The notes beneath the pieces are model-generated. The model saw nothing but the letters and a program-made list of their open reading frames with translations. It was not told where the DNA came from and made no database searches. Position numbers and translations under genes: made by a program. 64,000 nt of DNA from an uncultured Acidobacteriota bacterium (GTDB lineage Bacteria > Acidobacteriota > Thermoanaerobaculia > Gp7-AA8), in contig CAWGHO010000003.1 in NCBI GenBank assembly GCA_963822445.1, forward strand, positions 544,001 through 608,000, read 5' to 3'. Shown here piece after piece: positions 6,281 to 21,287 of the stretch. Position 1 is the stretch's first letter. Each line of letters starts with the position of its first letter.

Positions 6281-7192
6281 ATGCAGGTCATCCTCTCGGG
6301 GAGCCTCCGGCACTTTCCGCCGGCCGAGCTCCTCACCTTTCTCTCTTCACGGGGTATGAGCGGGACGCTCGACTTCGAGACGGCGGGCAGGCGGACGCGG
6401 GTCTTTTTTCAGAACGACCGGATCGTCTGGGCGGAGTCGAACAAGACGACCGACGTCGCCGAGGCCGTTCTCGACGCGTTCGAATGGCCTTCCGGAACGT
6501 TCACCCTTCTCGATTCCACGGCCTTGCCGGATGGGGTAGCCGCGGTTTCGATCGAGCTGGCGACGCTCGTCGCCGAGGCGACGAAACGCGCCGCGGCGGT
6601 CTCGCCTTACCAAGATGCGGCGATGTTCCGCGTCGTCGAGAACCCGCTGCAACAGCAACTGAGCATCACGGCCGACGATCTGAAGATGCTCTTCCGCCTC
6701 TCGTCGCCGAAGTCTTTCAAGGATCTCGTCGCTGAAGTGGGCCTGCCGCCGAAAGAGCTCGGCGAGCGCCTCAAGAAGCTCGAAGATGCGGGACTGGTTC
6801 ATCACAACGATCCCGACAAAACCGATCCGGCCCTGAAGCCCGGCAGAAAGCGGACGCTCGTCGGATCGCTCACACCTGACGGAGCAGTGGACAACGTCTT
6901 CCCGCTGCTCGACGCCGAACAGACCATCGGCCGCGTCCCCACGAACAACATCGCCCTTCCCGACGCGAGCATCTCCTCGACCCACGCCCGCATCAGCCGC
7001 ACGCCGGAAGGCTTCTTCATCGAAGACCTCCAGAGCCGCAACGGCACGTTCGTGAACGGCGAGAAAGTCGACTCGAAACGCCTCCTCACCGACGGAGACC
7101 TGATCCGCCTCGGCAAGGTCATCATGACCTTCAACGTGGCCCGGGAAGGGAAGGCTGGCGAAACGACGCAGCCGGAGGTGAGGGTGGTGTGA
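6281..7192 (+). CDS. DUF4388 + FHA domain protein
   Basis: N-term LSGSL..F...ELL.FL.....SGTL (DUF4388-like); C-term FHA IGR...ISSTHA...DLQSRNGTFVNG. Confidence 0.85.
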   Translation: MQVILSGSLRHFPPAELLTFLSSRGMSGTLDFETAGRRTRVFFQNDRIVWAESNKTTDVAEAVLDAFEWPSGTFTLLDSTALPDGVAAVSIELATLVAEATKRAAAVSPYQDAAMFRVVENPLQQQLSITADDLKMLFRLSSPKSFKDLVAEVGLPPKELGERLKKLEDAGLVHHNDPDKTDPALKPGRKRTLVGSLTPDGAVDNVFPLLDAEQTIGRVPTNNIALPDASISSTHARISRTPEGFFIEDLQSRNGTFVNGEKVDSKRLLTDGDLIRLGKVIMTFNVAREGKAGETTQPEVRVV

Positions 7193-7277
7193 GGTTTCGA
7201 GGTTACGAGGTTACGGGGTTCCGAGGAGGAACCCGGTTTTCGACCTCGCAACCCCGTAACCCCGCAACCCCGGAACC
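7193..7277. repeat. Inverted octamer tandem-repeat hairpin element
   Basis: 4x GGTT(T/A/C)CG(A/G) at 7193-7226 mirrored by 4x (T/C)CG(C/T/G)AACC at 7244-7277. Confidence 0.85.
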
Positions 7278-19400: not shown

Positions 19401-19989
19401 GACCGGAATCGCCGTCCAGTTCCGCTATGCCTTCGTAACCGGGGCGAAGGGCCTGCACAGCATCGAGATCACCGATCCGTCGAAACCGCGGCTCGCGGCG
19501 ACGCTGCCGATCAAAGACGCCCGCAATCTTTACGTCGCGCGCACGTATGCCTACGTCGCCGGCGGCAAAGAGGGGCTGGTCATCGTCGACGTGGAGAAGC
19601 CGGAGAAGCCGTTCGTCGATCAGGTCTTCCACGACGATCTGCATGACGTGAACGACGTGAAAGTGGCCGCGACCAACGCCAGCGTCTTCGCGTACGTCGC
19701 CGATGGCGAACATGGTCTGAAAATTCTCCAGCTGACGTCGCCCGAATGGACGCCGACCTACGCCGGCTTCAGCCCGCGCCCCGCGCCGCGCCTGATTGCC
19801 AAACGCCACACCCACGGTCCGGCCCTGGCCATCTCCAAAGGCCTCGACCGCGATCGCGCCGTCGACGAGAGCGGCTACCAGGTCTCGATCTTCAACCGCA
19901 TCGGCGCCCGCCCAATGACGTTGCCCGAAATGCAGCGCCTCTACCTGCGCAACGGACAGATCTACACGGTGAGTGAGGTCCCGAAATGA
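16442..19989 (+). CDS. Large multiheme cytochrome c (10 CxxCH) with C-terminal LVIVD-repeat beta-propeller; about 7 apparent frameshifts
   Basis: Stitched across frames: CESCH, CTDCH, CGTCH, CTACH, CMSCH, CADCH, CQDCH, CYACH, CSGCH, CGSCH, then YAYIAD..EGLILVD / [15 protein letters not shown] repeats; frame switches near 17298, 17430, 17993, 18100, 18150, 18200, 18540. Confidence 0.8.
16518..16552 (+). repeat. Heptamer tandem repeat (ACTCATC, 5 copies) inside CDS
   Basis: ACTCATC x3, GCTCATC, ACTCAGC; translated [10 protein letters not shown]. Confidence 0.8.
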
Positions 19990-21287
19990 AACGCGTGTTG
20001 CTCATCTCAATCATCTGCGCCGCAGCAGTGGGTATCGCGCAACAACCCACCCAGCAACCCAGCAACTCAGCAACCCAGCAACCCAATAAATACATCGGCG
20101 TTGCCACCTGCGTCAGCTCCGGCTGCCACGGCTCCACCGAGCCTCTCAACGCCTCCCGCGTCCTGCAGAACGAGTACTACACCTGGCTGAACAACGATCG
20201 CCATTCCCAGGCATACAACGTCCTCTTCAACGATCGCTCCGCGCGGATTGCGAAGAACATGCGCCTCAGGAAGCGCGCGTATGAAGAAGCGGCATGTCTC
20301 GATTGCCACACCACCAACGTTCCCGCTAGCGAAGTCGAAGGGCGCATCGATCCCGAAGACGGGATCCAGTGCGAGGCCTGTCACGGTCCGGCCAGCGGCT
20401 GGCGCGCTGAGCACACCGAGGAAGGGTGGACGCATGCGCAGTCCGTCGAGCGGGGGATGATCGATCTCACCAGCGTTCCTGTGCGCGCCCACATGTGTCA
20501 CCGCTGCCATCTCGGCAACGCGCAGAAGGAAGTCGATCACGAGCTCATCGCCGCCGGGCATCCGCTGCTGGCCTTCGAGCTCGACAACTTCACCGAATCA
20601 ATGCCGCCGCATTGGACGCCGAATCGAGCCACGCACGGCGTGAATGCCTGGGCCGTCGGACAGGTGATGAAGTTCCGCGACTCCCTCGGCAACCTCGCCC
20701 GTCACGCGCGCGGCAACGAGTGGCCCGAGTTCAGCGACATGAGCTGCTACAACTGCCATCACACGCTCAAAGGCAGCGAATGGCGTCAGCGTCGCGGCTG
20801 GCCCGATCGCGCCGGCCTGCCGTCGTGGTCCCCGCAACATTGGGCGATGTTGCGATTGCTGATCGGCCGCGTGTCCCCGCAGTCGCGGGATGAGCTCGAC
20901 GGACTGGTCGCGCAGATCGCGCGCGGAGTCGCGCGCATGAACGAGCCCGCCGCGGTCGCCGCGAACGCGGATCGGGCGCGCAGCATCGTTCACAACCTGG
21001 TGCCGCGCTTCGAATCGCAACGTTGGACCGACGCGGAAATCCGCGCGATCATGACCGCCATCGCCAGCGACCGCGCCTTCCTCGAGGCTGCCGACGTGCA
21101 CGTCGCGGAGCAATCCGCGCTGGCTCTGCAGAGCCTCGCCACGTCGCTCACCCGTCGCAATCCGCGCCTGCTGCGCGGCCCGATGATGCGCTCGATCGAC
21201 GCGCTGTTCGAAGAGGTGAAGAGTCGCGATGACTTTGATCCGGCGAGGTTCGGCGAGAAGCTGGCGGCTGTGAAAGCGGCCATTTAA
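19986..21287 (+). CDS. Cytochrome c554-like multiheme protein
   Basis: Signal peptide; YIGVATCVSSGCHG, CLDCH, GIQCEACHGPAS, CHRCH, CYNCH; ATGA overlap. Confidence 0.85.
   Translation: MKRVLLISIICAAAVGIAQQPTQQPSNSATQQPNKYIGVATCVSSGCHGSTEPLNASRVLQNEYYTWLNNDRHSQAYNVLFNDRSARIAKNMRLRKRAYEEAACLDCHTTNVPASEVEGRIDPEDGIQCEACHGPASGWRAEHTEEGWTHAQSVERGMIDLTSVPVRAHMCHRCHLGNAQKEVDHELIAAGHPLLAFELDNFTESMPPHWTPNRATHGVNAWAVGQVMKFRDSLGNLARHARGNEWPEFSDMSCYNCHHTLKGSEWRQRRGWPDRAGLPSWSPQHWAMLRLLIGRVSPQSRDELDGLVAQIARGVARMNEPAAVAANADRARSIVHNLVPRFESQRWTDAEIRAIMTAIASDRAFLEAADVHVAEQSALALQSLATSLTRRNPRLLRGPMMRSIDALFEEVKSRDDFDPARFGEKLAAVKAAI
20049..20084 (+). repeat. Octamer tandem repeat (ACCCAGCA, 4 copies) inside CDS
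   Basis: ACCCAGCA x2, ACTCAGCA, ACCCAGCA; encodes a Q/P/N linker after the signal peptide. Confidence 0.75.

Follow-up and report, generated by a model that had tools for sequence, protein, structure and literature searches.

To our knowledge, the trans-envelope electron conduits known so far draw on the quinone pool; the Mtr system, in particular, is fed from quinol via CymA. The closest described relative of the locus reported here is PCC4, a cluster type proposed in silico by He et al. 2017 (PMC5566968). According to the accessible text of that paper, PCC4 combines a porin, periplasmic 4-, 5- and 10-haem cytochromes and further redox genes with a conserved inner-membrane protein of about 300 amino acids (aa) that has five transmembrane (TM) helices, an SGxxG motif in TM4 and W-x3-H-x13-H motifs in TM3 and TM5. 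In PCC4 subgroup II, the same text has the gene of this protein immediately preceded by an Fe-S (pfam13247) gene, and it gives the three cytochromes as periplasmic and none as extracellular. PCC4 clusters are named there for Hyphomicrobium and the Zetaproteobacteria. Here we analysed a 64,000-nucleotide (nt) stretch of an uncultured Acidobacteriota genome (hereafter the window; G+C content 65%; all coordinates are positions in the whole stretch unless a contig or locus is named), in which eight genes, g1 to g8, occupy positions 6281-21287 and encode a multihaem redox operon.

Compared with PCC4 as its text describes it, g3 carries the membrane-protein signature exactly, and an Fe-S domain (Fer4_11) is encoded directly upstream of g3, here as part of the larger protein g2. 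A 10-haem cytochrome (g4), a 5-motif cytochrome (g8), a putative porin gene and further redox genes are present; no 4-haem protein was found in the operon. Unlike in the PCC4 description, the Fe-S domain is fused to two cyclic nucleotide-binding (cNMP) domains and an NAD(P)H-linked flavoprotein, and the operon adds a decahaem-LVIVD fusion (g7), a double-GlcG protein (g5), FHA domains on g4 and an FHA protein with a helix-turn-helix (HTH) domain (g1). The operon is a variant of this cluster type, marked by these extras. The initial annotation of the window knew of no characterised system with such an architecture, which still stands where experimental work is concerned and has to give way to PCC4 for clusters described in silico. 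Our literature search returned no description of the full architecture, and Acidobacteria, Planctomycetes and Nitrospira are not mentioned in Shi et al. 2014 (PMC4245776). As detailed below, the inner half of the putative electron path, from g2 over g3 to g4, is well supported. For the complete reading, a modular redox chain of the envelope that most likely runs outward from NAD(P)H, we estimate an even chance of being correct.

Modular organization of the operon and its conservation

All eight genes lie on the + strand. The first, g1 (6281-7192), encodes a cytoplasmic, regulator-like protein of 303 aa in which Pfam recognises DUF4388 (PATAN-like; 2e-13), HTH_5 (1.4e-5) and FHA (4.7e-21) domains. 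It is followed by g2 (7278-9651), an FAD/NAD(P)H oxidoreductase with two cNMP domains and a 4x[4Fe-4S] ferredoxin part (Pfam, NCBIfam), by g3 (9769-10602), a 5-TM predicted dihaem b protein according to alignment, TM scan and an AlphaFold2 (AF2) model, and by g4 (10599-12890), for which Pfam, TM scan and CxxCH count gave the order FHA-TM-decahaem c-TM-FHA. Downstream lie g5 (12887-14545), exported and composed of two HbpS-like/GlcG domains (Pfam 6.4e-24 in two stretches; N-terminal hydrophobic signal), g6 (14536-16461), an outer-membrane barrel with an N-terminal Ig-like sandwich (AF2, Foldseek, VIA), g7 (16442-19989), an exported decahaem cytochrome with a C-terminal LVIVD beta-propeller (Pfam LVIVD 7.3e-24), and g8 (19986-21287), an exported c554-like cytochrome with a helical C-terminal half (Pfam Cytochrome_C554 1.1e-11). 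We found overlapping stop and start codons at five of the seven junctions: a GTGA at 10599-10602, where the GTG start of g4 overlaps the stop of g3, then 12887-12890 (g4/g5), 14536-14545 (g5/g6), 16442-16461 (g6/g7) and 19986-19989 (g7/g8). The two remaining junctions are spacers, one of 85 nt between g1 and g2 (7193-7277) with palindromic elements, the other of about 115 nt between g2 and g3 (9652-9768), also palindromic and containing inverted runs of one heptamer.

The topology scan detected no hydrophobic segment in g2, five TM helices in g3, two around the haems of g4 and N-terminal signals in g5 to g8. Haem c motifs total 25 (10 CxxCH each in g4 and g7, 4 CxxCH and 1 CxxxxCH in g8). Pfam counts three FHA and two cNMP domains in the operon, all above the gathering scores (FHA, PF00498, 75.4 bits in g1 and 98.7 bits in two stretches of g4; cNMP_binding, PF00027, 142 bits in two stretches). 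Thus, the eight co-oriented and mostly overlapping genes, the named domains and the approximately 25 haem c motifs reported in the initial annotation were all recovered. For the gene set as a whole, domains, order and orientation hold and intact reading frames do not, as g2 (one frameshift) and g7 (seven insertions) are interrupted.

We then compared the locus with relatives at two distances. Eight relatives were fetched, six of the same genus and two of another family of the order, and g1 to g8 were colinear in all of them, with g1 upstream of g2 at 28-63% identity. Such recurrence of one gene order, here and in more distant genomes, greatly exceeds what chance would produce. Of 24 same-genus genomes, 19 gave a g4 match at E<=1e-100 (18 of 23 if one unpublished genome is set aside), as did two same-order genomes of another family, while the 14 remaining genomes at the order and class level gave only FHA-level matches. 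A scan with the barrel alignment detected at least 559 confirmed g6 relatives among 185,579 species genomes. The locus counts that follow describe the best 80 of these at least 559. In 68 of 70 informative loci the barrel gene is followed, on its own strand, by the decahaem-LVIVD gene, a pair found in Acidobacteriota classes, Planctomycetota, Nitrospirota, Binatia, Methylomirabilota and Omnitrophota, that is, in at least six phyla. In 53 of 63 informative loci a double-GlcG gene is located no more than 9 kilobases (kb) upstream of the barrel gene, the misses being mostly Bryobacterales. A g3 relative occurs in 36 of the 80 loci; an Fe-S domain is encoded directly upstream of it, on the same strand, in 34/34 informative loci, and a decahaem gene directly downstream in 35/36. 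Among the 34 loci whose flanks extend 9 kb or more to either side, 23 contain all three inner parts (the Fe-S part of g2, g3 and g4).

On account of these contiguity counts, the operon resolves into two modules: an inner one of Fe-S protein, g3 and decahaem cytochrome, and an outer one of GlcG protein, barrel and decahaem-propeller, often with a c554-like gene. Synteny of these units across phyla, which the initial annotation had proposed as a check, was observed. Examples illustrate the modular build: a Nitrospira locus (L084) has all parts of both modules, a Pirellula locus (L092) only the outer trio of GlcG, barrel and cytochrome, and a Binatia locus (L050) decahaem, GlcG, barrel, decahaem-propeller and c554-like genes. 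Long matches to g1 among the barrel loci are mostly confined to Thermoanaerobaculia. Similarly, the FHA domains are lineage-specific: the decahaem protein carries two or one in Thermoanaerobaculia, one in Nitrospira and none in the Bryobacterales and Binatia examined.

The inner-membrane module

The flavoprotein part of g2 is TrxR/YpdA-like and lacks a CxxC motif. Pfam assigned Pyr_redox_3 (2.8e-38), two cNMP_binding domains (5.8e-42) and Fer4 domains, and NCBIfam gave YpdA-like (7.6e-43) and HydN-like (1.9e-17) matches, both under their cut-offs. The Pyr_redox_3 part holds two dinucleotide-binding motifs and a single Cys, and therefore no redox disulfide. The Fe-S domain is HydN/DmsB-like and matches Fer4_11 (E 4.5e-9, 36.8 bits for a cut-off of 26.2); the 16 Cys of its four [4Fe-4S] motifs are invariant in 9/9 sequences. 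We also inspected the putative ligand-binding residues by eye. Both cNMP domains appear to keep the FGE...R-T-A phosphate-binding pattern. The GR / S-x-x-H / NG pattern of FHA domains is kept in g1 and in the C-terminal domain of g4, and partly lost in the N-terminal domain of g4.

Two Bryobacterales loci (L088:17780-21771 and L090:11894-15687) were informative about the electron donor. They encode a cNMP-FeS protein with a NuoG-like N-terminus preceded by a NuoE-NuoF fusion, so that a NuoEF-type module replaces the FAD domain ahead of the cNMP-FeS/g3/decahaem unit. Two unrelated NAD(P)H modules therefore share one position, and in either form the Fe-S domain retains its pair of cNMP domains. 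This replacement supports a link of the chain to pyridine nucleotides.

In g3, the two H-x13-H pairs seen in the initial annotation correspond to W76-x3-H80-x13-H94 in TM3 and W248-x3-H252-x13-H266 in TM5, and SGxxG (S117-G121) lies in TM4. We aligned 21 sequences from Thermoanaerobaculia, Bryobacterales, Nitrospirota and Pyrinomonadaceae, down to 23% identity: H80, H94, H252, H266, W76, W248, G118 and G121 were invariant in all of them. The positive-inside rule, as we read the sequence, predicts that one pair of His faces either side of the membrane and that the helical insert of about 100 aa is cytoplasmic. The AF2 model has a predicted local confidence (pLDDT) of 81.6. We thus predict g3 to be a transmembrane dihaem b carrier. 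The family is large, with 5,672 representatives (50% identity) at E<=1e-3, 3,678 at 1e-10 and 803 at 1e-30. Many of its proteins (P0039-P0146) are 450-826 aa long with a large insert between TM4 and TM5; none of 17 long members scanned reached a Pfam family above its cut-off. The Atlas clusters nearest to g3 bear the automatic name 'Ferric reductase like transmembrane component', which can serve as a lead only.

The initial annotation had also considered an association of this membrane protein with the ferredoxin domain. We modelled g3 together with the Fe-S domain of g2 and obtained a complex score of 0.69 (0.72, 0.69 and 0.66 in separate runs), whereas the best of three controls reached 0.01; the alignments were custom-made, and the calibration of this score is accordingly only rough. 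In that calibration, 116 out of 157 solved complexes attained the mark, as did 2 out of 215 mismatched pairs. At least 90% of the contacts were common between runs, with a partner pLDDT of at least 74. In the model, the g3 loops 63-77, 125-142 and 242-245, all predicted to be cytoplasmic, form the interface beside H80/H252 and contact the first and last Cys motifs of g2. The model supports docking of the Fe-S domain of g2 on the putative cytoplasmic face of g3.

The third component, g4, has TM helices at 159-177 and 561-579, FHA domains in two stretches (Pfam 2.6e-28) and haem stretches of c7/c3 type. Its haem domain is predicted to be periplasmic and both FHA domains cytoplasmic. All 10 CxxCH motifs and 10 further His are invariant in 14/14 sequences, a ligand pattern that would fit ten bis-His haems, i.e. 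a wire and not a catalytic site. Profile searches matched ActA of ACIII (1.2e-10), Hmc (1.6e-9) and c7 cytochromes.

The outer module, interrupted frames and neighbouring genes

The protein g6, predicted to be an outer-membrane barrel as the initial annotation had it, showed no Pfam family at E<=0.01. The AF2 model, built on a 48-sequence alignment (pLDDT 83, predicted TM-score (pTM) 0.73), comprises an Ig-like sandwich at about residues 18-88 and an 18-strand beta-barrel at about 153-640. Conservation within the family is highest in a long loop at 472-541. The best structural match was AlgE (Foldseek E 4.2e-16; VIA Z 27.3, root-mean-square deviation 2.9, 367 aa), followed by OprD/Occ channels (VIA Z 23-25.5, with OpdQ at 25.5 and OccD2 at 24.9); further matches included MOMP, chitoporin and maltoporin. 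Identity in these structural alignments is 8-12%. Because the barrel is 18-stranded and AlgE/OprD-like, it is unlikely that g6 encloses a decahaem in the MtrAB manner, as judged from the model. The outer membrane may be crossed instead by a thin cytochrome segment or by a diffusing substrate or shuttle.

Ten haem motifs were found in 7/7 g7 orthologues examined, as 10 CxxCH or as 9 CxxCH and 1 CxxxxCH. The NCBIfam ExtM model matched g7 partially (92 bits, cut-off 800). We observed no cluster of invariant His/Cys in the propeller; besides the haem motif, only H99 is invariant among 25 sequences. The N-terminus is a plain signal without lipobox here and in 4/5 orthologues, and the Nitrospira orthologue (L084:11553-15473) shows a lipobox-like LQGC motif after the signal. 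The motif count of g8 is the same in 4/4 orthologues, and its match to c554 in the PDB has E 0.0022. The search for solved relatives of g7 and g8 gave only weak rows, to NrfB/NrfA and c554.

In this assembly g2 and g7 are not continuous open reading frames, and the other six genes are intact. We located one frame change in g2, near 9055-9095, and, by comparison with five relatives, seven insertions in g7, at 17296, 17430, 17991, 18104 (+2), 18150, 18209 and 18540; the ten haem motifs of g7 are thereby divided among five segments in different frames (3+1+3+2+1). Each of the eight events is a small insertion, and the correct frames are free of in-frame stops. In relatives, g2 is a single frame of about 791-800 aa and g7 an intact frame of about 1180-1400 aa. 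One fetched relative, L011, itself a few-contig assembly, shows multiple frame changes in g2 and a single one in g7, and in the seven others both genes are single frames. We therefore inspected long genes elsewhere in the three-contig assembly. Three of nine copies were frame-split: rpoB, over two frames (C2:1928362-1932613), a parC-like gene (C1:223078-224734) and a second uvrA (C2:1294739-1297400); rpoC, secA, gyrA, two dnaE and uvrA were whole. The split genes point to frequent insertion and deletion errors across the assembly.

Since frame splits also affect rpoB and two further long genes, the eight interruptions of g2 and g7 very probably reflect assembly errors and not gene death. A strain-specific decay of the operon, with g7 and perhaps g2 as true pseudogenes, would account for the unusual density of the g7 insertions: seven lie within 1.25 kb, neither they nor the g2 frame change fall in a long homopolymer, and locally they are much denser than the housekeeping genes would lead one to expect. 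This weighs against a purely technical origin. However, the essential rpoB is split in the same way, the changes are small insertions only, and the six remaining genes of the operon are intact. Also, the frameshifted stretch of g7, with 73-74% identity to L015 compared with 77-83% in the flanks, is not more diverged, its identity being normal for orthologues. Decay is, in our judgement, improbable.

Immediately 3′ of the g8 stop we found an inverted repeat with 27-nt arms (21290-21376), which probably marks where the operon ends. The operon is directly followed by a gene for a Na+/H+ exchanger (PF00999; 21293-22648); the hairpin before it suggests a separate transcription unit, and the gene is syntenic only in the closest relatives. 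Just upstream of the operon, at 2842-6206, lie a PSCyt2/PSD1 (DUF1549/DUF1553) gene and a DUF1501 gene, the latter syntenic in several same-genus relatives. The window also contains a gene for a 1058-aa protein with a weak CHAT domain (35731-38904) and a LodA-like L-lysine epsilon-oxidase gene (45435-47315).

Direction of electron flow and relation to known systems

A simple model of the operon can be drawn from these components. The flavoprotein g2 would exchange electrons with NAD(P)H in the cytoplasm and pass them through its four [4Fe-4S] clusters to the cytoplasmic-side haem of the 5-TM dihaem b protein g3, which would carry them over the inner membrane to g4, a decahaem wire with all ten haems bis-His. 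From g4 electrons could reach the c554-like pentahaem g8 and the decahaem-propeller g7, which would work beside the 18-strand channel g6 and the double-GlcG protein g5. Flow would most likely be outward, with NAD(P)H as the donor, an acceptor in the periplasm or outside the cell, and the quinone pool bypassed; candidate acceptors are Fe(III), Mn(IV), humics, O2, which would yield superoxide, and a solute taken up by the cell. The chain would then correspond, in bacteria, to NOX/ferric-reductase chemistry with an added section of c-haems. Binding of cyclic nucleotides to g2 and of phospho-Thr by the FHA domains may control it, so gating by cyclic nucleotides and Ser/Thr phosphorylation is conceivable from the presence of these domains. 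The domains, the invariant ligands and the conserved gene contiguity are direct observations, the docking of g2 on g3 is supported by a model, and we infer direction, acceptor, outer-membrane crossing and cNMP/FHA control. Of the continuous wire from NAD(P)H to the cell surface in the initial annotation, the segment from NAD(P)H/FAD-cNMP-FeS to the dihaem b protein and the decahaem cytochrome is retained, and the Mtr/Pcc-like porin conduit is not, given the 18-strand AlgE/OprD-like barrel.

Several observations weigh against the outward chain. We found no experiment on any member of the cluster. The match of g3 to Ferric_reduct (PF01794) stays at 18.8 bits for a cut-off of 28 and covers residues 46-99 only; a PDB profile search for solved relatives of g3 returned nothing below E 0.3, Foldseek nothing below 1e-3, and the wide VIA structure search only generic helical bundles (best Z 10.4). 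The complex model carries the rough calibration given above. MtrB is not among the top 50 matches of g6 in Foldseek or VIA, and the 18 strands and the conserved, internal-looking loop of g6 resemble the AlgE/OprD substrate channels. In 11 of the 34 full-flank loci, among them Pirellula and most Pyrinomonadaceae, no g2-g3-g4 lies within 10 kb of the outer module, so that the two modules can function separately. At least one locus, L082, seems to encode a cNMP-FeS protein with no dehydrogenase domain next to it. Finally, the related PCC4 was modelled by He et al. 2017, in the accessible text, as electron uptake into the quinone pool (PMC5566968).

Applied to the present operon, the uptake model would lead electrons from an Fe(II)/Mn(II)-type donor, extracellular or in the periplasm, over the multihaem proteins and the dihaem b protein to quinone, or through g2 to NAD(P)+. 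The signature of g3 and the upstream Fe-S gene match PCC4 of Fe(II)-oxidiser genomes, as far as these are described in that text (PMC5566968). The cluster also occurs in two Nitrospirota loci (L069, L084), and TrxR-type flavoproteins and NuoEF modules are generally reversible. However, the membrane potential favours electrons moving outward and would oppose their inward movement; transfer from Fe(II)/Mn(II) to NAD(P)+ would be strongly uphill, and the cluster holds no ion-translocating, coupling subunit. Outward flow is favoured for these two reasons. Delivery to quinone would leave the Fe-S/cNMP partner (34/34) and its modelled docking on the cytoplasmic face unexplained, and most carriers are heterotroph-type Acidobacteriota/Planctomycetota, judged by record titles only. 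We consider uptake rather unlikely. A second alternative concerns the outer half: a periplasmic redox enzyme with its own substrate channel and not a surface wire, in which g6 passes a small solute or shuttle and g7 with the GlcG protein reduces or oxidises it, with electrons from g2-g3-g4 where these are present. The structural neighbours of g6 (AlgE, OprD/Occ, chitoporin, maltoporin; Z 20-27, 328-367 residues aligned), the conservation of loop 472-541, the plain signal of g7 here and in all but the Nitrospira (LQGC) of five orthologue N-termini, and the minimal GlcG-barrel-cytochrome form in Pirellula are all in line with such an enzyme. In Geobacter, the porin ExtI, encoded beside multihaem genes, is linked to selenite/tellurite and not Fe(III) reduction in the available text (PMC5877670). 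On the other hand, the g7 propeller has no invariant His/Cys cluster that would mark a metal site (25 sequences), the haems of g4 all appear to be bis-His, and no neighbouring gene indicates a candidate substrate. This alternative is unlikely, although it keeps an appreciable chance.

The operon could also serve as a redox sensor, whose haem chain reports the outside redox state inward at little flux and whose FHA, cNMP and HTH domains convert it to regulation. That a single operon encodes three FHA domains, two cNMP domains and an HTH protein would suit this role, and HbpS-like proteins take their name from a Streptomyces partner in redox-stress sensing. Against it, only some carriers have g1 and the FHA domains, in contrast to the conserved redox core, 25 c-haems, two b-haems, four Fe-S clusters and a flavin far exceed known sensors, and the cluster contains no kinase, cyclase or output enzyme. 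We regard a sensor as very improbable. Returning to the outward chain, we put forward with some reserve, and as doubtful, the further idea that a cNMP-controlled Fe-S flavoprotein on a dihaem b protein, the latter from a large family without a Pfam model above threshold, represents an unrecognised class of inner-membrane electron gate, which would feed NAD(P)H electrons straight to periplasmic decahaem wires, past the quinone pool, for regulated extracellular reduction or superoxide formation.

If the proposed chain is true, an NAD(P)H-fed Fe-S/dihaem b chain with cNMP domains would couple the cytoplasmic redox state to the outside in a different way, and with such a gate abundant soil Acidobacteriota, Nitrospirota and relatives would gain a regulated route to Fe(III), Mn(IV), humics or extracellular superoxide. 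The parts are common, as the numbers of g6 relatives and g3 representatives given above indicate. Judged by record titles, carriers include Acidobacteriota, Planctomycetota and Nitrospirota, and the existence of cultured members in some carrier groups makes the system accessible to experiments.

The relation to other known systems is one of shared parts. As in MtrCAB, MtoAB and PioAB, multihaem c genes stand beside an outer-membrane barrel gene, and decahaem counts are common to both. Membership of g6 in the Mtr/Pcc type was rejected (18 strands against 26, and MtrB outside the top 50 structural matches), as was membership of g4 in MtrA/DmsE, for which there was no TIGR03508 match and the profile matches were to c7, Hmc and ActA. 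In NCBIfam no protein of the operon reaches the threshold for MtrA/DmsE or for MtrC; the TIGR03508 score of g8 is 24.2 bits (cut-off 192). Unlike the quinol-fed Mtr system, the dihaem b protein here is modelled as docked to a cytoplasmic Fe-S flavoprotein.

The inner half resembles two other groups of enzymes. With NOX/FRE/STEAP it would share the order NAD(P)H, flavin, two bis-His b haems, with H-x13-H in TM3 and TM5. Unlike these, g3 has five TM helices and not six and misses the PF01794 gathering score (18.8 against 28), four Fe-S clusters connect it to a flavoprotein that forms its own polypeptide, and the acceptor would be a c-haem wire and not O2 or Fe(III) directly. The Foldseek rows of g3 in this group are weak (STEAP4 E 1.7, STEAP1 E 1.9). 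With FdnGHI/NarGHI it shares a HydN/DmsB-like 4x[4Fe-4S] domain predicted to sit on a transmembrane dihaem b protein; unlike these, it has no molybdopterin subunit and shows no evidence of a quinone site, and g3 shows no sequence relation and only a weak FdnI row in the structure search (E 2.4).

For the outer half, g6 has the 18-strand fold of AlgE/OprD/Occ without Pfam membership in Alginate_exp or OprD. The Geobacter ExtM cluster also holds a porin, ExtI, according to the available text (PMC5877670); identity of g7 with ExtM was rejected, the partial match of 92 bits being far under the cut-off of 800. For peat Acidobacteriota, a preprint describes four porin-cytochrome architectures, including 'EET2' of Bryobacterales, and its accessible text mentions neither FHA domains nor propellers (10.64898/2026.05.27.727921). 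We group this set ('EET1-4') with the clusters of Desulfovibrio ferrophilus and the uet cluster of Tenderiales, in which a barrel, multihaem cytochromes and a beta-propeller element likewise stand together (10.1101/2022.05.06.490989; 10.64898/2026.05.27.727921). FHA, cNMP and an NAD(P)H module are not mentioned for these clusters in the accessible parts of the two texts, and the propellers there are separate NHL proteins, whereas in the present operon the LVIVD propeller is fused to the decahaem cytochrome.

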